Source: Paludibacteraceae bacterium
Lineage (GTDB): Bacteria; Bacillota_I; Bacilli_A; RFN20; CAG-826
DNA length: 64,000 nt
Assembly (NCBI GenBank): GCA_963621535.1
Contig: CAVFEQ010000002.1
Location: 15,362-79,361 of the forward strand
Reading direction: 5' to 3'
Shown here: positions 14,563-29,335 of the stretch, piece by piece
How the letters are laid out: every line of letters starts with the position of its first letter
Numbering within the stretch: position 1 is the stretch's first letter
Notes under the pieces: model-generated
Told to the model about the DNA's origin: nothing
What the model saw: the letters and a program-made list of their open reading frames with translations, nothing else
Database searches by the model: none
Translations under genes and position numbers: made by a program

Positions 14563-15159
14563 ATGAGCCAATATTTCGATAACGTAGAGAGTTTGGCCCA
14601 TCAGGACATCCATTACGAATTTGACCTCTTGGGCGAGCATTATCGCCTGAAGAGCGATGCAGGGGTCTTCTCCAAAGACGGCCTCGACGATGGCACTAGG
14701 TTGTTGCTTGAAACCATCGCCAAGACCGACCTTGGGACGAACATTTTGGACTTAGGGTGCGGAGTCGGACCAATCGGACTAATCCTGGCCCGCACTGACT
14801 CGTCACGTCACGTTGTCCTAGCCGACGTGAACGACCGAGCCCTCGAATGCGCGAAAGCAAACGCTTCCGCTCTTGGCGTAACTAGCCAAGTCGAGATTGT
14901 CCACTCAGACGTCTACAGCTCGATCAATTCCTCTTTCTCCACAATCGTGATCAACCCGCCTATACGCGCGGGTAAAAAGGTTACGTACGCGATGTACGCG
15001 GGCGCATGTAGCCACCTTAATGAAGATGGTTCCTTGATCCTAGTCATCCGCAAACAGCAGGGCGCAGAATCCTGCTTCTCTTACCTTAAGACCCTCTTTA
15101 AGAAGGTCGAGGTAAAAGCCCGCCATAAGGGCTTCCACATTCTCATCGCGCGCAAATAA
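14563..15159 (+). CDS. Class I SAM-dependent methyltransferase, MTS small-domain type (RsmC/YbxB-like)
   Basis: Carries motif I (ILDLGCGVGPIGL) and an NPP motif (VINPPIRAGK). It lies between rplL and rpoB, as ybxB does in B. subtilis. I take the start as ATG 14563, after AGGAG. Confidence 0.8.
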   Translation: MSQYFDNVESLAHQDIHYEFDLLGEHYRLKSDAGVFSKDGLDDGTRLLLETIAKTDLGTNILDLGCGVGPIGLILARTDSSRHVVLADVNDRALECAKANASALGVTSQVEIVHSDVYSSINSSFSTIVINPPIRAGKKVTYAMYAGACSHLNEDGSLILVIRKQQGAESCFSYLKTLFKKVEVKARHKGFHILIARK

Positions 15160-15169
15160 GGAGTAACAC

Positions 15170-18100
15170 ATGCCACAAGAAGAAAAATTCGACCACCAAC
15201 TTCTGAACTATAAAGATCCTAACGGCGTTCCCTATGCCGTGGGGGCGAACGGCCGCATCAACTTCTCCAAGATCTCCGGGAAGCTCCCTCTCCCCTACTT
15301 GGTTGAAATCCAGACCGATTCCTACCGCTGGTTCTTGAAGCAAGGCCTCGACGAGGCTTTCCGCGAGATTTTCCCGATCTACAGCTTCTCGGGAAAAATC
15401 CAGATCAACTATGTCTCCTCCCGTTTGGAGGAACCTAAATACACCCCGCTTGAATGCAAGGCGGGCGATTTGACCTATTCAAGCAAGATCAAAGTCGCTC
15501 TCCGCCTCGTCCTTGAAAGCGGCGAGATCAAAGACGCCGACGTCTTCATGGGCGAGCTTCCGCTCATGACCGAATCGGGCACCTTCATTGTCAACGGCGC
15601 TGAGCGTGTCATCGTCTCCCAGATCGTCCGCTCCCCCGGTGCTTATTTCCAAGACACCGTCGATAAGGATGGCAAGCACATCTATAACGGCGAGATCATC
15701 CCCGGACACGGCACTTGGCTGCAATTTGAAAGCGACCCCAAAGGCGTTCTCTATGTTCGTATCGACAGGCAGAGAAAAATGCCTGCGACCACCCTTTTCA
15801 AAGCCCTTGGCATCGATAAAGAAAAAGAGCTCATCCAGCTTTTCGGCAAAAGCGACAACATGCTTGCCACCATCAAGAAGGATGACAGCATCAAGTCCAG
15901 CGCCGGCGCTTTGATCGACATCTTCCAGAAACTGAAACCTGGCGAGCCGGTCACCCCCGATGGCTCGGTTGATTTCCTCGTCACCAAATTCTTCGACGAG
16001 AAGAGATACAACCTCGGCCCCGCCGGACGTTTCAAATACGCCCAGAAGCTCGGCCTCTATGAGAGGCTCCCTGGCCGCGTTTTGGCCGAAGACCTCATCG
16101 ACAACCACCCCGAAGGCTGCACCATCGACGTCGATGGCCACATCTTCAACGCCGATGGCGAGCTCGTCGAACCGAAAGTTCTCTTCAAAGAGGGCCATAA
16201 GCTCACCAAAGAAGAAGTCGACTCCCTTAGGGACAGCGAGTTCTTCGAAAGAGGCAACTATGAGAAGAAGATCGCCTCCAACGAGAAGATCGACAAATAC
16301 AGCAACGTCAACGTCATCCACGTCTACGCCCAAGACAAGCAAGGCGAAGAAGTGGTCCCGATGGTCGGCACCGATCTTAACCTCACCCTCAACAGAGTGA
16401 CGATCTCCGACATGGTCGCCTGCTTCTCCTATTTCTGCAACATCCAATCCGGCCTTGGCCAGACCGATGATATCGATCACCTAGGCAACAGACGCATCCG
16501 CTGCGTCGGCGAGCTTCTTCAGGAGCAGTTCCGCAAGGGCCTCTCCAAGATGACCAAGACCGTCCAGCAGAGGATGTCCATCAGCGATTTCGAGTCCATG
16601 ACCCCGCAGTCGCTTGTCAATATCCGCCCGCTTACCTCCTCTGTCCGCGAGTTCTTCTCCTCGAGCCAGCTCTCGCAGTTCATGGATCAGGTCAACCCGC
16701 TTGCCGAGCTCACCAACAAGAGGCGTATTTCCGCCCTTGGTCCTGGCGGTCTCACTCGCGATAGAGCTTCCATGGAAGTCCGCGACGTCCACTACACCCA
16801 TTACGGCCGCATCTGCCCGATCGAATCTCCTGAAGGACAGAACATCGGTCTTATCAACAACCTCGCCTGCTACGCGAAGGTCAACCAATACGGCTTCATC
16901 GAGACCCCCTTCCGTGAGGTTCTCCATATGGATGATGGCCGCTCCTTCGTCGTCGAAGGCGATTTCAAAGGTGACGGCAGCGTTGAATACAAAGCCAAAT
17001 ATCTTTCCGCCGATGCTGAGCGCAACCACTACATCGCCGAATCGAACATCCGCCTTGGCGAAGCCTGCCACTTGAAGGATCTCTATGCTAATGCGGACCA
17101 CGATTGCCTCGTGAAGGAAATCCTCGACGAGAAAGTGGTCGCTAGACACGATGAGGACAACCTCGAAACCGAGAAGGAGAAAGTCGATTACGTCGACGTC
17201 TCCCCCCGTCAGATCGTCTCCATCGCCGCGGCGAGCATTCCTTTCCTTGACCACGATGACGCCACCCGTGCTCTCATGGGCGCGAACATGCAACGTCAGG
17301 CTCTTCCTCTTCTTTCCCCTGAGATCCCTTACGTCGGCACGGGCATGGAGCAAATCATCGCCCGCGACTCCGGTCTTGCGGTTGTCGCCACCAAAGACGG
17401 CGAAGTCGTCTACATGGACAGCAAGAAGATCCAGACCAAGAACGGCAAGGAAGTCGTCACTTACGACCTTCAGAAGTTCGACCGCACCAACAACGGCACC
17501 TGCATGAACCAGACCCCGATTGTCCACGTGGGCGATAAGGTCAAAGCCGGCGACATCATCGCCGATGGCCCCGCCATGAGGCATGGCGAACTCGCCCTCG
17601 GCCACAACGTCCTCGTCGCTTACATGACTTGGCACGGCTACAACTACGAAGACGCCATCATCATGTCTGAGCGCATGGTGAAGGATGACGTCTATACCTC
17701 CATCCACATCGAGAAATACGAAATCGAATGCCGCGACACCAAACTCGGCAACGAAGAGATCACTCGCGACGTGCCTAATGTCGGCGAAGATGCGAAAGCC
17801 TTCCTCGACGAAAGAGGCATCATTATCCCCGGCGCCGAAGTTAAAGAAGGCGACATCCTCGTCGGCAAAATCACCCCGAAAGGCCAGACTGAGCCGACTC
17901 CGGAAGAGAAGCTTCTCATGGCCATCTTCGCCGAGAAAGCCAAAGAAGGAAAAGACAGCTCCCTCCGCGTTCCTCATGGCGGGGCGGGCATCGTCCATGC
18001 GGTTAAGATTTTCTCCCGCAAGAACAAAGATCCCCTTCCCCCGGGCGTAAACACCGTCGTCCGCGTCTATATCGTTCAGAAGAGAAAGATCTCCGAAGGC

Positions 18101-18973
18101 GATAAGATGTCCGGCCGTCACGGTAATAAAGGCGTCATCTCCAAGATCCTTCCGGTCGAGGACATGCCTTTCCTTGCCGACGGCACCCCGATTGATATCC
18201 TTCTTTCCCCGATGGGCGTCCCTTCCCGTATGAACATCGGCCAGATTCTTGAAGTCCACTTGGGCCTTGCTTGCCGCAAGCTCCAGATGAGAGTCGCCAC
18301 CCCCGTCTTCGACGGCGTGAGCAATGAAGAGCTCTTCGACATCATGAAGAAAGCCGGGCTGAGTGAAGACGGCAAAACCGTCCTTTATGACGGGCAAACC
18401 GGCGAGCCTTATGGTGAGCGCATCTCCGTCGGCGTCCAGTACATGATCAAACTCGTGCACATGGTCGACGACAAACTGCACGCCCGCGCCACCGGACCTT
18501 ATTCCCTCGTCACGCAGCAGCCTCTTGGCGGCAAAGCGCAGAATGGCGGACAGAGGTTCGGCGAGATGGAGGTCTGGGCCCTTGAAGCTTATGGGGCCGC
18601 GCACATCCTCCAGGAAATGCTTACCATCAAATCCGACGACCGCGTCGGCAGAAGAAAGACCTACGAAGCGATCATCAAGCAGCTCCCCATCCCGAAGCCC
18701 GGCATGCCCGAGGCCTTCAAAGTCTTGGTCAAGGAACTCAAAGGCCTTTGCCTCAACGTCAACTTGTACAAGAAGGATGGCAGCAAGATCGACCTCGACG
18801 AGCTCACCAAGCAAGCCCTCATCGAGGAGAAGAAAGTCAATTCTTCCATCCGCAACGCGATGTCTCCTAAGGAAGAGGAAGTCGACCCCGCCGCAACCAT
18901 CGAAGTCGCTAATGACATGGCCGCGGAAGAAGGGTTCTCGGTTTCCGATAGAATCCCCGGGAGCGAAGAATAA
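15170..18973 (+). CDS. rpoB: DNA-directed RNA polymerase subunit beta
   Basis: 1267-aa ORF with conserved beta blocks ([55 protein letters not shown]). Confidence 0.98.
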
Positions 18974-18992
18974 AGAAAGCGAGGAATGAACA

Positions 18993-21900
18993 ATGTCTGA
19001 TGAAATCAAAATTGAAGATACTGTCGTGACGGAAGAGGAACCTCGCCTCCCTCGTCGCGAGCGTCACGTCGAGTCTTTCGACGTCAACGACCTCGCTTCC
19101 GTCTCCGTCGGCCTTGCTAGCCCGGAGATGATCCGCAACTGGAGCAAAGGCGAAGTCACCAAAGCCGAAACCATCAACTACCGCTCCCAGAAACCGGAGA
19201 TGGGCGGCCTTTTCTGCGAGAAGATCTTCGGCCCGGCCAAAGACTATGAATGCCACTGCGGAAAATACAAAAAGATCCGCCACCAGGGCATCACCTGCGA
19301 GAAGTGCGGCGTCGAAGTCATCTCCAAGGATTGGCGCAGAGAGAGATTCGGCCATATCGAGCTCGTCTCCCCTTGCGCCCACATCTGGTATCTGAAGTCG
19401 ATCCCCTCCAGGATGAGCCTTGTCCTCGACATGACTCCGAAGAACCTCGAGGACATCATCTATTTCGCGGCCCACGTCGTCCTTTATGCCGGCGAGAAGA
19501 AGAAGCCTAATGGCGAGCCTTACCAGACCATCAAGTACAAGGACTACCTCTCCGAGGCCACTGCCCGCGTCGAATTCACCGAGGCCATCAAGGAAATCCT
19601 TGGGACGCTCGATGAGAGCAACAGCGACTACTCGAAGGGCCACGAGCTCATCGAGAAGATGCAGAACCCCCAAGAGACCTTCGACTTCTACACGATCAGC
19701 CAATACATCAACAAATACACCGGCGCCGAATTCGGGGAGGGCGCTGAAGCCATCAAAGAGCTGCTCCACAACGTCAACCTCGAAGAGGAATTCAAGGCCA
19801 TCAACGAGGCCATGAAACATTCTTCGACGCAAAACCGCTTGAAGCTCTCCAAACGCCTTGAGGCCATCAACGCCTTCAAGGATTCCAACCAGAAGCCTGA
19901 ATGGATGATCCTCGATGCGCTTCCGGTCATTCCGCCTGACCTCCGCCCGATGCTTCAGCTCGACGGCGGGCGTTTCGCCGCGAGCGATCTCAATGATCTC
20001 TACCGCCGCGTCATCATCCGCAACAACCGTCTGAAGAAGCTCATCGACATGTCCGCCCCATACGTCATTCTCATGAACGAGAAACGTATGCTTCAGGAAG
20101 CCGTCGATGCGCTTATTGATAACGGCAGACGCACCAAAGCCGTCACCGGTCCTAGCGGCCGTCCTTTGAAGTCCCTTTCTTCGGGATTAAAAGGTAAGCC
20201 TGGACGTTTCCGTCAGAACCTCCTTGGGAAGCGTGTTGATTATTCCGGACGTTCCGTCATCGCGGTCGGGCCGAATCTACGCATGTATCAATGCGGGTTG
20301 CCTAGAGAAATGGCGATCCAGCTCCTCCGTCCGTTCATCGCGGCGATCCTTATTGAAAGGAAGATCGTCTCCGCGCATAAGGCCGCGGACAAATTCATCG
20401 ACCGTTATGATCCGGTGGTCTTCGACATCGTCGAGGAAATCATCTCTGATCACCCGGTGTTGCTTAACCGCGCGCCGACCCTCCACCGCCTCTCGATCCA
20501 GGCCTTCCAGCCTGTCCTCGTCGACGGCAGGGCGATCCGTCTGCATCCGCTCGTCTGCCCTGGCTTCAACGCCGACTTCGACGGTGACCAGATGGCCGTC
20601 CATGTCCCGCTTAGCCGCGCGGCTCAGAAAGAAGCCGTCGAGCTCATGCTGGCTTCCAACAACATCCTCGGTCCGAAAGATGGCAAAGCCATCGTCGTTC
20701 CTAGCCAGGACATGATCCTTGGCAACTTCCACCTCACCACCGAAGAATCCCGCAAGGACTTCCAGGATAGGGCGGATGCTCTGCAAGCGATCGAGGCGAA
20801 AGAAGAGAAACAGAAGACCGGCGTCTATGAGCGCAAAGCCGTCCTTGAGATGGCCGAGAAGAATCTCGAATGGAAAGAGATGGAAGGCAAAATCTTCCAT
20901 AGCGTCTCCGAGGTTCGCCTCGCTTATGAATCCGGCGTGGTTTCGCTGCATAACCGCATCGCGATCCCCGCTAACGCCATCCATAAGGACCTTGGCTCAG
21001 GCATCCCTGAGGATGTGGCCAAAAAGTACCTCATCACCAGCGTAGGCAAGATCATCTTCAACGAAGTCTTCCCCGACGACTTCCCTTATATCAATGACGT
21101 TCCCCATCCGGGCGAATCCCTCGATTACATGGAAGAGTGGTTTGTTAGCCCAGCGGACGTCAAAGAGAAACTAGGCAAGGATTACAAAGAAGATTCTTCC
21201 CTTTCTCCTCTTGCCCAATACATCGATACCCTTCCGCTTAAAAAGCAGATCGGCAAAAAGCAATTAGGACCTCTCATCGACATGGTCTTCAAGAAGTATG
21301 GCGCCGCGAAAACCAGCGCCGTCCTCGACAAGATCAAAGACCAGGGCTTCTACTTCTCCATGATTTCTTCCGTCACCGTCTCCATCGATGACATCAAGGA
21401 AGGAAGCATCGGCAGCGCGAAAGCCAAGCTCGTCGCCGAAGGCAACAAGAAGGTCGACCAGATCGAGAAGTTCTACAAACTCGGCTTCCTCACCGCGAAA
21501 GAACGCCACAAACAGATCGTCGACATTTGGACCAAATGCACCAAAGACGTCGCCGAAGAAGTCAGCAAGGCCATGAAGGAGAACAAGCGCAACCCGCTCG
21601 TCATCATGGCGGATTCCGGCTCCCGTGGCTCGCTTGACAACTTCAAGCAGCTCATCGGCATGAAGGGCCTTGTCGCTAACCCGAAGAACGAGGAAATCGA
21701 AATCCCGATCGTCTCTTCTTACCGCGTCGGCTTAAAGGTCTCCGAATACTTCAACAACACCCACGGCTCCCGTAAAGGCGCCGCGGACACCGCGCTTAAG
21801 ACCGCGGACTCTGGCTACCTCACCCGTCGTCTTGTCGACGTCTCGCAAGATGTCATCGTGCGCGAAGAGGATTGCCACTGCGACCATGGCTTCATGGTTC

Positions 21901-23066
21901 GCGAAATCCGCAACACCGCCCAGGACAAAGTCGTCGAGACCCTCGATGACCGCATCTCCGGCCGTTATGCGATGCACGACATCATCAACCCGCTGACCGG
22001 CGAGATCATCGTCGAAGGCAACACCATGATCAACGACGATGAGGCCAAAGCCATCGTCGCCTGCGGCATCAAGGAAGTGGAGATCCGCACGATCTTCACC
22101 TGCGAGACCAAAGACGGCGTCTGCCAGCATTGCTACGGCAAGAACATGGCGACCGGCAACCTCGTTTCCATTGGCGACGCGGTCGGCATCATGGCCGCCC
22201 AGTCCATCGGTGAACCGGGTACCCAGCTCACCATGCGTGTCTTCCACACCGGCGGTATGGCTGGTAGCGACATCACGACCGGTCTTCCCCGTGTCCAGGA
22301 GCTCGTTGAAGCCAGGAACCCGAAGGGCGAAGCCTGCATCTCCGAGATCTCTGGTACCGTAAAGAGCATCACTCCTGAAGACGAGAAATACAAAGTCGTC
22401 GTCGCCAATGACCTTGAAGAGAAGGAATATGAGACCAACTACGGTGCCCATCTCCGCGTCAAGGTCGGCGACAAGATCGAAAACGGCGGCAAGATCACCG
22501 AAGGCGCCATCAATCCCCGCAAGCTTCTTGAGGTTGGCGGCGTGGAGAAACTCGAGGTCTATATCCTTAAGGAAATCCGCAAAGTCTATCACGCTCAGGG
22601 CATCGGCATCTCCGACAAGCACCTTGAGATCATCATCCGTCAGATGCTCCGCAAAGTAGTCATCGTCGATGGCGGCGACACCAAGATGCTTCCTGGCTCC
22701 CGCGTCGATATGGACCGCTTCACCGAAGAGAACGCCGCTGTGCTTCTTTCTGGAGGCAAACCGGCGATCTGCGAGCCACTCGTCCTTGGTATCACCAAAG
22801 CCGCGCTTGAGACCGACTCCTTCCTCTCCGCCGCTTCCTTCCAGGAAACGACCCGCGTCCTCACCGACGCCGCGGTGAAGAACCGCGTCGACGTCTTGCA
22901 CGGTCTGAAAGAGAATGTCATCACTGGCAAACTCATCCCCGCTGGTACTGGCCTTGCCACTGCTGAAGAAGCCGATGAAGCCGATAGCTTCTCCGTCTCC
23001 GAGGCGATGAAACAGGTCAAAGCCAAATACATCGAAAAGCACGACCGCGCTGATCAAGAAGACTGA
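18993..23066 (+). CDS. rpoC: DNA-directed RNA polymerase subunit beta'
   Basis: 1357-aa ORF with the N-terminal zinc motif ([20 protein letters not shown]) and the catalytic [12 protein letters not shown] motif. Confidence 0.98.
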
Positions 23067-23077
23067 TTCTTCTAGGA

Positions 23078-23108
23078 AGCTCACCTTCGAAAGGGGGTGA
23101 GCTTTTTT
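23078..23108 (+). terminator. Rho-independent terminator after rpoC
   Basis: AGCTCACC pairs perfectly with GGTGAGCT. The stem extends inward to a GAAA tetraloop and is followed by T6. Confidence 0.85.
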
Positions 23109-23113
23109 GCGTC

Positions 23114-23138
23114 AAAAAGCCCGCAAAAACGAAAAATA
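23114..23138. repeat. 25-nt repeat AAAAAGCCCGCAAAAACGAAAAATA (candidate left att-like copy)
   Basis: Matches 29218-29242 at 24 of 25 positions and 38701-38725 at 23 of 25, all in direct orientation. A 16-nt core also occurs inverted at 10988-11003. Confidence 0.85.
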
Positions 23139-23430
23139 TCTCTATTTGGCCGGGGGCGGTATTTGAGAAATTGCATCTTTTTTCCCTTTCACTGTGCGGA
23201 GAAAAGAAGCGCCTTTTGCGGACTCACTTTTTGAAACTTTTTTGTTTTTCCTCCTTCCAATGGCTAGATGAAAAAGCTGGCGGTTTTGGTGAATAGATTT
23301 TTCTGAAAACGAAAAAGCCACCATCGGCACGACAGAGTTATCAATTTTGGTATGGCAATTCGATAGACAAATTAGAGATAAAGTGATATAAAATGTTAAA
23401 CAGTGTTATTTAGGAACAAAGGTGCAAAAT

Positions 23431-23637
23431 ATGAAAATGGATTATGCTAGTGCTTTAAGGCAACTAAGGGCGGAATTGAACCTGTCCCAACATGAATTTG
23501 CTGATTATCTACATGTGTCATTCGTTTCGGTCAACCGCTGGGAAAACGGGAAATTCGAGCCTACAGTCCTCGTGAAGGAAAGGCTTAAGAAATTATTTAA
23601 GCAGTACAACATAGAATTGGAGGTAATGGATCAATGA
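23431..23637 (+). CDS. XRE-family HTH protein (controller-like), first gene of the AT-rich operon
   Basis: Carries an HTH_3 signature (LRQLRAELNLSQHEFADYLHVSFVSVNRWENGKFEP). Its stop overlaps the next start (ATGA). ATG 23431 is preferred over the ORF-track GTG 23422. Confidence 0.8.
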   Translation: MKMDYASALRQLRAELNLSQHEFADYLHVSFVSVNRWENGKFEPTVLVKERLKKLFKQYNIELEVMDQ

Positions 23638-24296
23638 AAGGCCAAGTGAAATCCAAACAAAGAGTCAGAGATCATGGGGAGGTTTTCACCAACGAGCGCG
23701 AGGTGAACGCCATGCTAGATTTAGTAAAGGATGAAACCGAAAACATCGAATCCACGTTTTTGGAACCAGCCTGTGGCGATGGCAACTTTCTTTCAGAGAT
23801 TATTCGTAGAAAACTCGCAATTGTAAAAGAAAGATACGGCAAGAATTTGGAAAATTACGAAAAGTATTCAATCGTTGCCGTCTCCTCGGTATACGGAGTT
23901 GAATTGCTGAGGGATAACGTTATTGCCTGCATCGACAGGCTGTACAATATATGGAACGATGAATACTCGGAGATTGCAAAAAAGCAAATCAACAAAGACG
24001 TCCAGAATGCGTGCAAATATATCCTCAAGAAAAATATATTGTGCGGAGATGCTTTGACCTTGAAGCAAGAAAATGGCGAACCGATCATCTTCGCGGAATG
24101 GAAGCTCGTCAGTGGTTCTATGCTCAAAAGACGTGATTATCGATTGGATCAGATTTTGGAAGCACAAAACGATACTCCGAGCCTATTTTGGTTCGCAGAT
24201 GGTTGGGAATATGATGAAGAGACAAAGGAATATATCCCTGCTCCAATAAAGGAATTCCCTTTAACCGATTTCAGAAGGGTACAAGATTATGAATAA
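23634..24296 (+). CDS. DNA-methylase-like protein with a SAM-binding motif I but no catalytic motif IV
   Basis: 220 aa. It has [17 protein letters not shown], the canonical motif [13 protein letters not shown] (nt 23763-23792), and NILCGDAL with FAEW, which resemble the GNSL and FDW elements of Eco57I/PglX-type enzymes. No NPPY or DPPY is present anywhere. Confidence 0.65.
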
Positions 24297-25842
24297 AGTC
24301 AACTACAATCCGGATGTATTATCTTGCATCGCCAATTTGAGCAACGATGAGGTTTTCACTCCGCCGGAACTCGCAAATGACGTACTTGATTTATTGCCAA
24401 AGGAGATATGGAAAGACAAAAACGCCAAGTTCTTGGATCCTTTTTGCAAATCCGGCGTGTTTCTTAGAGAAATCGCCAAAAGACTATTGGAAGGGTTAAA
24501 AGACGAAATACCAGATCTGCAAGAAAGAATCGATCACATCTTCCATAATCAAATTTATGGCATCGCAATTACCGAACTTACAAGCCTGCTTTCAAGAAGG
24601 AGCGTCTACTGCTCTAAATACCCAAACTGCAAATATTCCATTTCCAAATTCGATGATGTGGATGGCAATATTCGCTTTAAGAGAACAGAGCATACTTGGA
24701 AAGACGGCAAATGCGTTTTTTGCGGAGCTTCGCAAAAAGAATACAAAAGAGACAAAGAACTGGAGACTTATGCCTATGAGTTCATCCATACATTGAAACC
24801 GGAGGAAATATTCAACATGAAATTTGATGTTATTTGCGGCAATCCGCCTTATCAATTAAATGACGGTGGAAACGGGGCGAGTGCCATGCCTATCTATCAA
24901 AAGTTTATTCAACAGTCGATAAAATTAAAACCTAAATACCTGACAATGATAGTTCCTTCACGATGGTTTGCTGGCGGAAGAGGACTAGACTCTTTTAGAG
25001 ATGAAATGTTGCATGATAATAGGCTTCGCAAAATTGTTGACTTTCCAAACGCGGCCGATTGTTTTCCAGGAGTGGAAATTAAAGGTGGAGTATGCTATTT
25101 CTTGTGGAGTAGAGATGAAAGAGGGCTATGCGAAGTTACTACTAAAAACGGGAAAGAAAGCAACACGGCTATTAGGCCTTTGCTTGAAAAAGGATGTTCG
25201 ACTTTCATAAGATACAATCATTCCATTTCCATTTTGCAAAAAATACGTAAGTTAAACGAAAAGACTTTTAATGAACTGATTACCCCTAACGATCCTTTTG
25301 GCTATGACGTTAGAGTTGAAAATAGCTACACCAGAATTAAACCCGATATTAAAAAAGAAAAATTTAATAATTGCGTGAAGATTTATTACTATGGTTGGAA
25401 AAGAGACGGTATAGGGTACATAGATAGAAACACAGTAAGGAAAAATCTCAATTGTATCGAGGATAAGAAAATCTTTATTTCAAGAGCTTATGGTGCGGGT
25501 GAAGTTTTTCCACACCAAATTCTCGGAGTGCCGTTCATTGCCGACAAATGTTCCGTATGTACTGAAACTTATTTAATGATTGGCCCATATAAGGATGATA
25601 ATATTTTGCACAATATTTTGTCTTATATCTCAACTAAATTTTTCAGATTTTTGGTAATGTTAAAGAAAAACACGCAGAGTGCTACGCCTGCTGTGTATGA
25701 ACTAGTCCCTGTTCAAGATTTTTCTAAAACATGGACAGATGAAGGCTTATATAAGAAATACGGACTTACAAATGAAGAAATTTCATTTATTGAGTCTATG
25801 ATCAAACCCATGGATTTAAATAACCCAGCTGAGGAGGAGTGA
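24289..25842 (+). CDS. N6-adenine DNA methyltransferase, Eco57I-like (gamma class)
   Basis: 517 aa. It has [17 protein letters not shown], a degenerate motif [13 protein letters not shown] with no GxG, the catalytic [11 protein letters not shown] (NPPY at nt 24841-24852), an inserted 4-Cys cluster (C-x4-C...C-x2-C, nt 24610-24723) and a long C-terminal TRD-like region. Confidence 0.8.
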
Positions 25843-28712
25843 AAATGGCAAAAGATTTCTTTCCTCAAAAGCCAAACGCAAAACCGATGATATATGCCTA
25901 TGAAGATAGTAATCCGCAATATGCCGGCTATTTGAAAATCGGTTATACAACAATTGGAGTAGAAGAGAGGGTTAGGCAACAATACCCTACTTTGAGACCC
26001 AATGGCACAAGCCCATACAAAATCGTCTTTGCCGAATCTGCCATGTATACCGATGGCGGCAATTTCATGGACCATGACATCCATAAATATCTGGATAAAA
26101 AAGGGTTCAAGAATGTCGGTGGTGAATGGTACAAGTGCAGCGTCGATGACGTAAGGGCGGCTTGGATTGCCGTTCGCTCACATACAAAAAACGAGGAAAA
26201 CAGGACGTTGAATTTTGCCATGCGTCCAGAACAAGCAGAAGCCGTCAACAAGACAATGCTTTACTTCGACTCCGTCTATCAAGACAGAAAACACAACATA
26301 CCCAAATTTCTTTGGAACTGCAAAATGCGGTTCGGCAAGACATTTGCCTCTTATGAACTCGCCAAGAAGATGGGCATGAAGAGAATCTTGATCCTGACTT
26401 TCAAGCCTGCCGTCCAATCTGCTTGGGAAGACGATCTTAAGCAACACGTGGATTTCGAAGGATGGCAGTTCGTTTCTCGTGATGGTTTAAGATATGAAGA
26501 CGCAGATAAAGAAAGACCTATCGTTTGCTTCGGATCGTTTCAAGACTATTTAGGAATCAACAAGGAAACAGGCGGAATCAAGCCTAAAAACGAATGGGTT
26601 CATACCATCAATTGGGATTTGGTCATCTTCGACGAGTATCACTTCGGTGCTTGGAGGGATAACGCCAAAAAGCTATTTGAGAATCCTGATGACGAAAAGG
26701 AAGACGTCGATAACAGCAACCATAATGAATTGCTTGATGAGACGTGGCTTCCTATAACCACCAAATATTATTTGTATTTGTCGGGTACACCATTCAGAGC
26801 CATCAATTCCGGCGAATTCATAGAAGAACAAGTCTATAACTGGACCTATTCCGATGAACAAAGAGCCAAAGAAAACTGGAAAGGACCGGACAATCCATAT
26901 GAAGCTTTGCCACGAATGGTAATGATGACTTATGAGATTCCCGAAGCAATCAGAAGAGTTGCTATAAATGGCGAATTCAATGAGTTCGACCTCAATATGT
27001 TTTTCGAAGCGGAAGGCAAAGGCAAAGATGCACGCTTTATTTTCGAAAACGAAGTTCAGAATTGGTTGGATTTAATTCATGGTGCTTATCTTGATACTTC
27101 TATTGATGAACTGAAAGTAGGCACGAAGCGTGGGCAATCATATCTTCCTTTCAAGGAAACTGCCTTATTAAATGTTTTGAGTCATACATTATGGTTTTTG
27201 CCTAATGTGGCTTCGTGCGATGCGATGGAGAACTTGCTTAAACAAAAGCAGAACAATTTTTATCATACATACAAAATTAATAACTGCTCTGGCACGAAAG
27301 CCGGCGTCGGCCTTGATGCGTTATATCCGGTTCTCGAATCAATGGACGATCCTCTTGAATCAAAGACGATCACGCTTACATGTGGCAAGTTATGCACTGG
27401 CGTTACCGTCAAACCATGGACCGGCATATTTATGCTTCGAAACCTCTCCACCCCAGAGACTTATTTCCAATCGGCATTCAGAGTTCAGTCTCCTTGGGAG
27501 GTAAAAACCGAGACTGGAAAAAAAGAAATCATCAAGAAAGAATGCTATGTTTTCGATTTTGCTTTGGACAGGGCTTTGAAGCAAATCGCTGATTATGCGA
27601 CCAAGCTCGACATAAACGAGCCAAACCCAGAAAAGAAAGTTCGAGATTTCATCGATTTCTTACCAGTTCTAGCCTACAAAGACGGTGCGATGAAAGAAAT
27701 CGACGCAGGAGAAATCCTGGACATCGCTATGAGCGGAACTACGGCTTCTCTCCTTGCTCGTAGATGGGAGTCGGCATTGCTCGTTAACGTCGATAATGCG
27801 ACGCTGCAACGCCTCCTAAATAGTGAGCGAGCCATGGAAGTTTTGATGAAAATCGAGGGTTTCAGGAGCCTTAACAAAGACATCACCACAATCATCGCGA
27901 AATCCGAAGATGTGAAGAAGAAAAAGAAAGAACTCGAGAACCCTACGCCAAAAGAAAAAAAGCAGATCTCCGAAGAGGAAAAGGAGTTCAAAAGCAAGAG
28001 AAAAGAGATTCAGGAAAAGCTCATCAAATTCGCCACCCGCGTCCCCGTGTTCATGTATTTGACCGATTACAGGGAATATTCTCTCGAAGATGTCATCACG
28101 AAGCTTGAACCCACACTCTTCAAGAAAGTCACCGGCCTAGACGTCGATGACTTCAATTTGCTTGTTTCTCTTGGGATTTTCAACAAGCCTTTGATGAATG
28201 ATGCAATCTACAAGTTCAAGAGATACGAGGATTCAAGCCTCGAATATACAGGCATCAATAGACACGAAGGCGAAAAAGTGGGCTTGTTCGATACCGTTCT
28301 TACCAACGACGAATATAAACACTTATATGAACTTCAGCAAAAATCTCTAATTGGCAAGAAAACAGCTTATAAGCTCGAAGACTTGGCCAAAGAAAAGAAA
28401 GGCTCTGGATTTGATAAAAACGGGCATGCAGTATCTTCTCAACAGCCAACGAAATCGAATGAATCGGCCTTTGTTTCAAAACCAAGTTCGCCTTCAAACC
28501 AAAAAACAATTGTTACCAAGAAAGAAATTATCGTTGTCGATAAATCTAAAATTGTTGTTGGTGCCAAGGTTTCCCACAAAGCGTTTGGCATTGGATTTAT
28601 TACAGAGTTAAAGGATGAACTTGTCGTTGTTAAATTTGACGAATACCCAGCTGCTAAAAACTTCCAGAATCCACAAGGGTTCGAAAACGGATTCTTAAAG
28701 TTGGAGGAATAA
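25839..28712 (+). CDS. T5orf172/GIY-YIG-like domain fused to an SF2 (ResIII-type) helicase with a Tudor-like C-terminus
   Basis: 957 aa. Residues about 17-112 read [19 protein letters not shown]...DHDIHKYL...GGEWYKC, a T5orf172-like pattern. Helicase motifs are motif I MRFGKT (nt 26334-26342), motif II DEYH (nt 26631-26642), SGTP and [12 protein letters not shown]-rich linker and a C-terminal [14 protein letters not shown]...VVVKF (PcrA/UvrD CTD-like) follow. Confidence 0.75.
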
Positions 28713-28840
28713 GAGCATGCCAGGTAGCGTTCCGTTTTTGTAGGTAAGCCCCCCAATTGGTATGCCGAAATGATTTGACGTGCTCCCTTTCGGGATCATT
28801 TTTGGCGATAGTTTGCCCGCTGAAAGAAAAGGAGAAACGA

Positions 28841-29047
28841 ATGGAAGAAATCATCAGCGATGCCTTGGCCACCGGCAAAAGGGTGACCACCGTCTACAGC
28901 CCGGAGCTGAAGTTGGCCCTGTTCCGGGAGTATGTGTTCGACGGCCAGGAAGCTTATGACGCGATAATCTCCTGCCTTGGCGCCGAACGCAAAACTGTAT
29001 TTACTCTGCAAACTAGCGGGCCTAAGTCTACGCAAAGTCTACTTTAA
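28841..29047 (+). pseudogene. Possible N-terminal fragment of an IS3-family (IS150-like) OrfA
   Basis: A 68-aa ORF after AAAAGGAGAAA. The stretch VYSPELKLALFREYVFDGQEAY resembles the YSxEFKLxxVxEYLxGxxSY start of IS150-type OrfA. The reading frame runs into the 260-bp repeat and stops there. Confidence 0.3.
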
Positions 29048-29258
29048 AGTCTACTTTTAGTCTACTTTTAGGGTCTTTTCTTCTACTAGATAAATGGAGG
29101 CTGCAATATTCTTCCTAGTCTTTCTCTCCGGTAGCAGGCAAAGGAGAAAGTGAGTCTATATCACGGATGTGGCCTCTATAGCGATCATCCTGATTCTGGG
29201 TTGCGTTCTATGGAGCGAAAAAGGCCGCAAAAACGAAAAATAACCCTGTTTTGCAGGG
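28999..29258. repeat. 260-bp repeat element, copy 1
   Basis: Matches 38482-38741 at 259 of 260 positions. It contains four AGTCTAC heptamers at 29035, 29046, 29058 and 29069, internal hairpins, the 25-nt motif and a terminal hairpin. Confidence 0.95.
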
Positions 29259-29267
29259 TTATTTTTT
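29236..29267. terminator. Long A/T-rich hairpin at the end of repeat copy 1 (bidirectional terminator)
   Basis: AAAAATAACCCTG pairs with CAGGGTTATTTTT around a TTTTG loop, with T or A runs on both sides. It lies downstream of the convergent PAP2 gene. Confidence 0.6.
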
Positions 29268-29335
29268 GTTATTAGCTCTTGTGAAACGGTTGGAAATCCT
29301 TGTTTATTTAAGGATTGCGTTTCGCCACTTAATAA

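Follow-up and report, generated by a model that had tools for sequence, protein, structure and literature searches.

A split, GIY-YIG-type restriction-modification-like gene module with a conserved half-methylase partner on a mobile islet downstream of rpoC in a Paludibacteraceae genome

A three-gene restriction-modification-like module

We analysed a 64,000-nucleotide (nt) stretch of the genome of a Paludibacteraceae bacterium (contig CAVFEQ010000002.1, positions 15,362 to 79,361, forward strand; hereafter the window), in which four chained open reading frames (ORFs), g1 to g4, lie downstream of rpoC. An earlier note, made from the sequence alone, had read them as a four-gene operon and a candidate non-canonical restriction-modification (R-M) or new defence system. 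The best description of the locus is an intact representative of a family of ATP-dependent R-M-like modules that is very common and moves horizontally; within the Type ISP/Type I design it is a split, GIY-YIG-type variant that has one additional, conserved subunit. We consider it likely that g2, g3 and g4 form a three-subunit ATP-dependent R-M system that follows Type ISP/Type I logic, uses a GIY-YIG-type nuclease and sits on an acquired islet. The features of the three genes are as follows.

23634-24296, + strand: g2, the 'half-methylase', 220 amino acids (aa), with the S-adenosylmethionine (SAM)-binding motifs X, I, II and III, without motif IV (NPPY) and without a target-recognition domain (TRD)
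24289-25098, + strand: g3 catalytic half, residues 1-270, gamma-class Eco57I-family N6-adenine methyltransferase (MTase)
25099-25842, + strand: g3 specificity half, residues 271-517, with a hypervariable target-recognition region at about 300-450 and a re-conserved end at 481-510
25845-28712, + strand: g4, nuclease-motor, 955 aa (957 from GTG 25839)
25887-26183, + strand: g4 N-terminal T5orf172 (GIY-YIG-superfamily) domain, residues about 17-115
26214-28109, + strand: g4 superfamily 2 (SF2) ATPase/translocase core, residues about 126-757, ResIII match
28524-28709, + strand: g4 PcrA/UvrD-type Tudor domain, residues about 896-957, the C-terminal ~60 residues

All four ORFs (g1 23422/23431-23637, g2 23634-24296, g3 24289-25842, g4 25839/25845-28712) were present and intact, and two of the three overlaps described earlier, ATGA at 23634-23637 between g1 and g2 and 8 nt at 24289-24296 between g2 and g3, were read in the sequence. 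The third, an ATGA at 25839-25842, was not: these positions read GTGA, within a g3/g4 junction that reads GAGGAGGAGTGAAAATGG. The likelier start of g4 is ATG 25845, behind a GGAGG ribosome-binding site (RBS), which gives a protein of 955 aa, the same as database protein P0001. The tight coupling of g3 and g4 is kept despite this correction.

Conservation and spread of the gene set

To place the locus in its family we surveyed 80 genome loci, which peptide patterns taken from g4 had picked out in Bacillota, Bacteroidota, Planctomycetota, Spirochaetota, Cyanobacteria, Nitrospirota, Myxococcota, the Candidate Phyla Radiation and others. The order g2, g3, g4 was found in 60/66 loci with enough upstream DNA, so that the survey of g2 and g4 neighbourhoods suggested in the earlier note returned a conserved arrangement. 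The remaining six loci comprised three g3-g4 pairs without a full g2 (one cut by a contig edge) and three degraded loci. In the reverse test, all three g2 homologs used as starting points had g3 and g4 behind them (3/3), and three further genomic contexts agreed with this order. Homologs of g1, the helix-turn-helix (HTH) gene that opens the chain, occurred in 2/80 loci (L006 and L025), other small HTH genes being sporadic. As g2, g3 and g4 recur in order while the HTH gene does not, the functional unit is three genes, not four; the chaining of four ORFs stands, the four-gene operon as a unit does not.

Searches with g4 and with g2 each returned thousands of proteins, and the g4 motor core alone gathered 962 clusters (50 % identity) at E <= 1e-30, almost all of them with an N-terminal domain of ~120 aa. 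RefSeq names for these proteins were generic. The context of related loci was that of mobile and defence regions. This included serine and tyrosine recombinases, integrases, GmrSD, Wadjet, a TIR protein and ParE toxins/toxin-antitoxin genes as neighbours, and the module was also found on plasmids and on 12 IMG/VR contigs, some of them proviral. In 21/60 related loci, one or two extra genes were located between g3 and g4 (nested cargo in L009, L014, L016, L021, L023, L047, L048, L055, L059, L060, L077 and L082-L085). These encoded Bro-N/DinD-like, Fic/DOC, DUF1016 and DUF2971 proteins and a toxin-antitoxin-like pair. Cargo of the Bro-N, Fic/DOC, DUF1016 and DUF2971 type has been reported between the core genes of Type I R-M operons (PMC9881135).

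A few family loci were visibly degraded (L001, with a split g3, L052, L062 and L072), as would be expected if such clusters were decaying or domesticated R-M relics in which only the methylase acts, as an epigenetic regulator. The Bacillus subtilis analogue, which showed no restriction or phage protection and whose DnmA is an orphan MTase (PMC9973331), is in keeping with this. In the window, by contrast, none of the three genes is truncated and no catalytic motif is damaged, the islet has the look of a recent acquisition, and g4 is the most conserved of the three genes (median 64 % identity across phyla), which would be unexpected for a dead gene. We therefore regard a relic with an orphan methylase as unlikely at this locus, and favour an intact R-M system.

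The methylase g3 and its specificity half

g3 (517 aa) matched the Pfam family Eco57I (PF07669) at E = 1.9e-39 and has the motif order X-I-IV (X, DEVFTP; I, DPxCKSGVFL at residues 49-60; IV, NPPY at 185-188), in agreement with the earlier call of an Eco57I-like N6-adenine methylase. Motifs X, I and NPPY were invariant in 64 homologs. The match to N6_Mtase reached 20.3 bits, under the cut-off of 20.4, that to MmeI_Mtase was below cut-off (E = 0.0022), and the Pfam scan found no MmeI TRD, C or other MmeI domain in g3.

Conservation across 64 loci was strongly uneven along the protein: 61-78 % for residues 1-270, 14-37 % for residues 300-450 and 60 % for the last ~30 residues. A comparison with the closest locus, L006, was consistent with exchange of this variable part. 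The g2 and g4 proteins of the two loci are 95 % and 94 % identical, respectively, and the operons share 88-91 % nucleotide identity except in the 3' two-thirds of g3, where nucleotide homology is interrupted (window 25116-25845 versus L006 6332-7007). At the protein level g3 is ~99 % identical through residue 187, the NPPY motif included, and ~45 % identical beyond it. These alignments show that the specificity half of g3 was cleanly and recently swapped between the window and L006 right after NPPY.

Four cysteines of g3 (C13, C108, C142 and C145) were kept in 63-64/64 homologs, inside and before the MTase domain (Cx33CxxC plus C13), which suggests a candidate structural zinc site. To our knowledge, no such site has been described in Eco57I-family methylases.

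The nuclease-motor subunit g4

The earlier reading of g4 as a T5orf172 domain fused to an SF2 helicase was corroborated by a ResIII match with invariant motifs and by the N-terminal domain, which, when scanned alone, matched T5orf172 (PF10544; E = 4.4e-10, 40 bits versus a cut-off of 20) and MUG113 (E = 5.9e-8, above the Pfam cut-off). T5orf172/MUG113 was matched by this domain in 11/11 family members, and the GIY-YIG-type positions Y19/Y21, K33-G35-T37, R44, H82 and E96 were kept in 78-81/81 sequences. The motifs of the core, MRPEQ, GKT (166-168), DEYH (265-268), SGTP (315-318) and QxxFRxQ (544-550), were invariant in 81/81. The Pfam scan found no PD-(D/E)xK family match in g4.

The AlphaFold2 (AF2) model of g4 was poor overall (predicted local distance difference test, pLDDT, 56), with the T5orf172 region at pLDDT 70-87. 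Foldseek with this low-confidence model returned Snf2/ISWI, XPB, RIG-I-like, ZorD, an HsdR fragment and SauUSI, which supports, at the level of class only, an SF2 core resembling double-stranded (ds) DNA/RNA translocases. Sequence and profile searches of the Protein Data Bank (PDB) with g2, g3, g4 and the g4 family gave nothing informative for the motor, MTase or T5orf172 domains. Homology to LlaGI/LlaBIII was likewise not found: searches with g3, with g4 and with the profile of the g4 family returned no PDB match at E <= 1 from a library that includes 4xqk and 5ffj.

The C-terminal tail of g4 was modelled confidently by AF2 (pLDDT 80-88), and its only PDB profile matches were the C-terminal domains of UvrD/PcrA (7egt, E = 0.0016; 7egs, 6yi2 and 5dma); the Pfam match to PcrA_UvrD_tudor was weak. 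This Tudor domain characterises a long form of the family (44/80 loci) and is absent from a short form of ~830 aa (36/80). In PcrA and UvrD, the Tudor domain docks to RNA polymerase.

Fused relatives of g3 and g4

Single-chain relatives of 1120-1420 aa were identified in which T5orf172 is followed by the ResIII helicase and then by the Eco57I MTase (P0371, P0384, P0362, P0389 and P0396, as well as a 1417-aa protein, in L090, on a Lactiplantibacillus plantarum plasmid). By domain annotation this is the domain order of Type ISP enzymes with a different nuclease fold. With E values as low as 1.7e-120, these fused relatives matched 'REase_MTase_IIG' (PDLC03626), a REBASE-derived PADLOC model of 1359 positions. 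The same model aligned with the split proteins of the window, g4 residues 121-757 corresponding to positions 151-801 (E = 6e-34), and g4 residues 121-757 together with g3 residues 13-508 jointly covering positions 151-1359.

The fused enzymes also keep a small g2-like gene just upstream. This gene encodes 200 aa in L086 (50-652; 38 % identity over g2 residues 1-106, E = 2e-19), 327 aa in L087 (4004-4987; hhalign probability 92 %) and 306 aa in L090 (1784-2704), and the differing sizes indicate that the half-methylase partner diverged into sub-families. A DUF4357 protein was encoded two genes upstream of the fused P0384 on two independent contigs (L087/L088, 3083-3919).

The half-methylase g2 as a dedicated subunit

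The designation of g2 as a half-methylase in the earlier note was borne out. The protein has the N-terminal motifs X (GEVFT), I (EPACGxGxFL), II (YGV[D/E]) and III (GDAL), all of them invariant, and no NPPY. Further invariant residues lie beyond the SAM pocket, in FxEW and RxD (F153, E155, W156, R166 and D168). The g2 family consists of 218-233-aa proteins at >=60 % identity across phyla. We considered that g2 might be gene debris or a truncated methylase pseudogene and rejected this, given the conserved size, the identity of at least 60 % across phyla and a position always upstream of g3-g4.

g2 is a conserved dedicated subunit and, since fused enzymes retain the g2-like gene upstream, a partner in its own right rather than a by-product of gene splitting. 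Its homology to the g3 family is confined to residues 14-69 (hhalign probability 97.5 %). Its confident AF2 model (pLDDT 81.7) matched, in part only, the fold of the MTase domains in MmeI, BrxX, BsaXI, LlaBIII and LlaGI (template modelling score, TM, about 0.3). We predict that g2 is a SAM-binding, catalytically dead paralogue of the N-terminal half of an MTase. Most likely it serves the g3-g4 complex as an adaptor or as a regulator that depends on SAM, and this is the weakest step of our model.

Public sources name g2 a 'SAM-dependent DNA methyltransferase', as would be fitting if the locus were a two-methylase system, in which an unconventional but active g2 would modify, for example, the second strand or a different substrate and g2/g3 would resemble the M1/M2 pairs of some Type IIS systems. 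The invariant residues beyond the SAM pocket, with the FxEW loop roughly at the place of motif IV, would also suit an active enzyme. Such activity is difficult to reconcile with a protein of 220 aa that has neither a TRD nor a (D/N/S)PP(Y/F/W) motif, and whose profile alignment with g3 stops at residue 69, the fold match being partial at a TM of about 0.3. We consider two active methylases highly improbable, and keep to a catalytically dead g2.

The same features bear on whether the system cleaves DNA in the classical manner at all. Defence marked by methylation, with a self mark as in BREX, could instead have g4 block replication, nick or degrade DNA, or trigger abortive infection, with g2 sensing, for example, SAM depletion by phage SAM-degrading enzymes. 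That g2 keeps every SAM-binding motif without the catalytic loop is in line with such sensing, and its retention beside fused enzymes implies that it does something the MTase domain cannot. In PADLOC, g2 and g3 gave weak MTase-domain matches to the PglX and mad2 models (E about 1e-4), and T5orf172 domains in phage-satellite conflicts can reportedly be nickases or domesticated DNA binders. Against these points, PglZ, BrxC, BrxL and other BREX/MADS partners were absent from the PADLOC scan and the neighbouring genes, and the fused relatives are laid out like genuine restriction enzymes, with nuclease, motor, MTase and TRD all present. The shuffling of the TRD fits either reading. On balance, defence without classical cleavage seems improbable to us, and an ATP-dependent R-M system remains the preferred interpretation.

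Short phage proteins of the families PHROG 21201, 11371 and 4376 (about 130-380 aa) matched the N-terminal half of g2, with E values as low as 1e-18. Short proteins that contain only motifs X-I and the stretch of N-terminal MTase sequence behind them are thus encoded by phages as well; they may be truncated methylases, or else mimics or decoys of g2.

Proposed mechanism

We infer the biochemical steps below, and the role of g2 in them, from the domains, motif integrity, synteny, fusions and TRD dynamics described above. Based on its family and motifs, g3 would bind a probably asymmetric site and N6-methylate adenine, thereby marking host DNA. At unmethylated sites bound by g3, g4 would be recruited and, by analogy with Type ISP/Type I enzymes, its SF2 motor would hydrolyse ATP and translocate along dsDNA. 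The T5orf172/GIY-YIG-type domain would then cut, probably at a distance from the site after collision or stalling, again as in Type ISP/Type I systems. g2 would act as an obligatory accessory subunit that bridges or regulates the g3-g4 complex, and g1 may time expression after transfer.

Several lines of evidence argue for this R-M interpretation. The catalytic-type motifs of g3 and g4 are intact and (near-)invariant across 64-81 homologs, and the synteny of g2, g3 and g4 is conserved across many phyla. Rosetta-stone fusions match PDLC03626 and retain a g2-like neighbour. The TRD is hypervariable, and the specificity half has been exchanged between operons that are otherwise ~90 % identical. 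The context is that of mobile and defence DNA, with low GC content and direct repeats, and the nested cargo resembles that of Type I operons (PMC9881135). Finally, the analogous yeeA/B/C genes were predicted to be Type I-like (PMC2731913), and yeeAB confers phage resistance in Vibrio crassostreae (bioRxiv 2021.05.05.442762).

Other points weigh against it. Methylation, ATPase activity, cleavage and phage defence are all predicted for this family from its genes alone. The role proposed for g2 is conjectural: nothing in the protein aligns with NPPY, but it may have an unconventional activity. Calling g4 a dsDNA translocase draws on motifs and on fold matches at class level, because the model has a pLDDT of 56, and PDB searches detected no sequence similarity to the solved R-M motors LlaBIII, LlaGI, EcoP15I and HsdR. 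Nuclease activity of the T5orf172 domain, established in other proteins, is predicted for g4 by analogy. The locus survey sampled the closer part of the family (56-94 % identity), because peptide patterns from g4 were used to retrieve it. Furthermore, the best-studied analogue, dnmA-yeeB-yeeC of B. subtilis, gave no restriction or anti-phage activity (PMC9973331).

A more speculative extension of the mechanism is that g2 is an obligatory third subunit that gates the T5orf172-motor, either by licensing it according to the level of SAM, as a counter to phage SAM-degrading enzymes, or by reading the target base; the family would then be a distinct, unnamed ATP-dependent R-M type. In the long form, the Tudor tail would tether the motor to RNA polymerase or to a different host factor and so link restriction with transcription/replication complexes. 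We regard this extension as doubtful.

The module is among the commoner R-M-like gene sets of gut and environmental bacteria, comprising thousands of proteins in many phyla at 56-70 % identity, on plasmids, islets and some proviruses. The evolution of modular R-M systems can be followed in it as in a natural experiment, with Type ISP/Type I logic rebuilt around a GIY-YIG-type nuclease, split versus fused forms and a recombinational swap of the specificity half just after NPPY. The predicted dead half-methylase and the Tudor tail provide testable handles on the regulation of a restriction motor. Current pipelines label family proteins inconsistently ('Type IIG', 'DEAD/DEAH helicase', 'GIY-YIG nuclease', 'SAM-dependent methyltransferase'), and a defined three-gene signature would help both annotation and the interpretation of methylomes.

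The islet and its HTH gene

The module of the window is located on a 6.1-kb insert, which is a horizontally acquired mobile islet. Its remaining features are listed here.

23094-23154: left 61-nt repeat copy, overlapping the rpoC terminator hairpin and T-run (about 23080-23108)
23364-23392, + strand: putative operon promoter, TAGACA, 17-nt spacer, TG-n-TATAAA (extended -10), read by eye and of presumed function
23431-23637, + strand: g1, XRE-type HTH protein, 68 aa (71 aa from the alternative GTG 23422)
28713-29197: 3' remainder of the insert, with a 68-aa ORF and tandem/palindromic repeats
29198-29258: right 61-nt repeat copy, running into a terminator-like hairpin (29229-29273)

The insert is bracketed by the two copies of an imperfect 61-nt direct repeat, in accordance with the bracketing by repeats noted earlier; the copies are 75 % identical and share the exact 18-nt core CCGCAAAAACGAAAAATA. 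The greater AT-richness reported for the four-gene block was also recovered. At 40.6 % GC it is the lowest-GC 5.3-kb stretch anywhere in the window (49.3 %), compared with 55.4 % for rpoC upstream and 46.1 % for the 10 kb downstream. The rpoB/rpoC region (window positions 15000-23066) has 55-58 % GC and the rest of the window about 46-49 %, so part of the contrast with the upstream side arises from the unusual GC-richness of the RNA polymerase genes there. Both flanks are housekeeping in character, with rpoC on one side and PAP2, alpha-rhamnosidase and a major facilitator superfamily transporter on the other.

The 'IS-like debris' (remains of an insertion sequence) placed downstream of g4 by the earlier note was not recovered: the sole ORF in 28713-29197, of 68 aa at 28841-29047, had no Pfam family match. 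The insert's non-coding tail after this ORF contains, at 29024-29068, three to four tandem, partly palindromic AGTCTACTTT-like units, which look iteron-like or recombination-site-like.

The call of an XRE HTH protein for the 68-aa g1 held up, with a match to HTH_3 at E = 2.3e-12, and ATG 23431, behind an AAAGG RBS, is the better start. Among PADLOC models g1 matched HTH_VI (3e-7) and, at only 1.6e-3, Control_protein. A classical C-protein could not be supported, there being no operator palindrome and little conservation of g1 across loci. As no C-box-like operator or inverted repeat was found upstream of g1, the term 'controller-like' is an inference only; g1 is an optional, lineage-specific add-on and a possible regulator. 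The putative promoter stretch at 23364-23392 is conserved in L006, and a consensus promoter scan upstream of g1 returned nothing, the promoter read by eye included.

Comparison with known systems

The gene set falls outside textbook Type I, Type III, Type IIG and ISP, as the earlier note had concluded. Type ISP enzymes (LlaGI, LlaBIII) share the parts list of nuclease, SF2 motor, gamma-class N6-adenine MTase and TRD, and members of both families are found on plasmids in lactic acid bacteria. Their logic is expected to agree as well, with methylation of one strand at an asymmetric site and cutting coupled to translocation. The nuclease, however, is T5orf172/GIY-YIG-type in the window and an N-terminal Mrr-like PD-(D/E)xK domain in ISP enzymes, which are single polypeptides, whereas the window version is split into g3 and g4 with the MTase first. 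It also has the extra g2, and some motors of the family carry the PcrA/UvrD Tudor tail.

Type I systems resemble the module in the HsdR layout of g4, with an N-terminal nuclease and a C-terminal SF2 motor, in forming a multi-subunit complex, in their nested cargo (DUF1016, RhuM/Bro-N, Fic) and in the shuffling of the specificity module. They differ in the nuclease fold and in having HsdS, for which no Methylase_S match was found in any of the four proteins, the flanks being housekeeping; g3 carries its own single TRD and belongs to the Eco57I family instead of HsdM, falling below the N6_Mtase cut-off. With Type III systems (EcoP15I) the module shares a methylase followed by a helicase-nuclease, the ResIII-type ATPase signature of g4 and a likely asymmetric site with single-strand methylation. 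The Mod subunit, though, is beta-class, with the TRD between the IV and I blocks, whereas g3 has the gamma order with the TRD last, and Res ends in a PD-(D/E)xK domain, whereas g4 has T5orf172 at its N-terminus and Tudor at its C-terminus. Type IIG/IIL enzymes (Eco57I, MmeI) have the same Eco57I-type gamma MTase domain as g3 but are one chain of nuclease, MTase and TRD without an ATPase motor; g3 itself has no nuclease domain, the nuclease being on the ATPase subunit g4. The 'Type IIG' label of PDLC03626 is a database convenience for a helicase-containing fusion, the window version being split and accompanied by g2. Beyond the weak PglX/mad2 MTase-domain matches, the PADLOC scan of the proteins and their neighbours found no markers of BREX (PglZ, BrxC, BrxL), DISARM (DrmA, DrmB), Druantia (DruA-E) or MADS (Mad1-8), which agrees with the earlier note for BREX, DISARM and Druantia.

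The same domain set occurs in dnmA(yeeA)-yeeB-yeeC of B. subtilis and Vibrio crassostreae, in which a gamma N6-adenine MTase and TRD, an SF2 helicase and T5orf172/GIY-YIG are combined in an operon that is likewise conserved and located on low-GC islands of horizontal origin. Nuclease-less MmeI homologs (YeeA) were described as invariably flanked by the helicase YeeB and the GIY-YIG protein YeeC, and a Type I-like system with single-strand modification was proposed for YeeA/B/C (Morgan et al. 2009, PMC2731913). Sisakova et al. 2012 (PMC3553950) later mentioned related enzymes that have helicase subunits and GIY-YIG nucleases, and PF10544 is in the Makarova/Doron lists of RM-associated families. 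This is the only design of such kind with an in vivo phage-defence result, yeeAB of Vibrio crassostreae conferring resistance to some phages (bioRxiv 2021.05.05.442762). DnmA is, however, a ~880-aa MmeI-family protein without PD-ExK, whereas g3 is a 517-aa Eco57I-family protein; helicase and T5orf172 are separate genes there and one polypeptide with an N-terminal nuclease in g4; and no counterpart of g2 has been described.

The proposal of a non-canonical R-M system thus stands, whereas that of a new defence system does not, because fused kin are covered by PDLC03626, the design was noted in 2009 and 2012, PF10544 is RM-listed and dnmA-yeeB-yeeC has been studied. The general design has been flagged twice and is biochemically uncharacterised since. 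We found no paper in the open-access literature on a T5orf172-motor fusion combined with an Eco57I-family MTase and a half-methylase, and the conserved half-methylase subunit and the C-terminal Tudor domain of the motor appear to be new features relative to the systems compared here.

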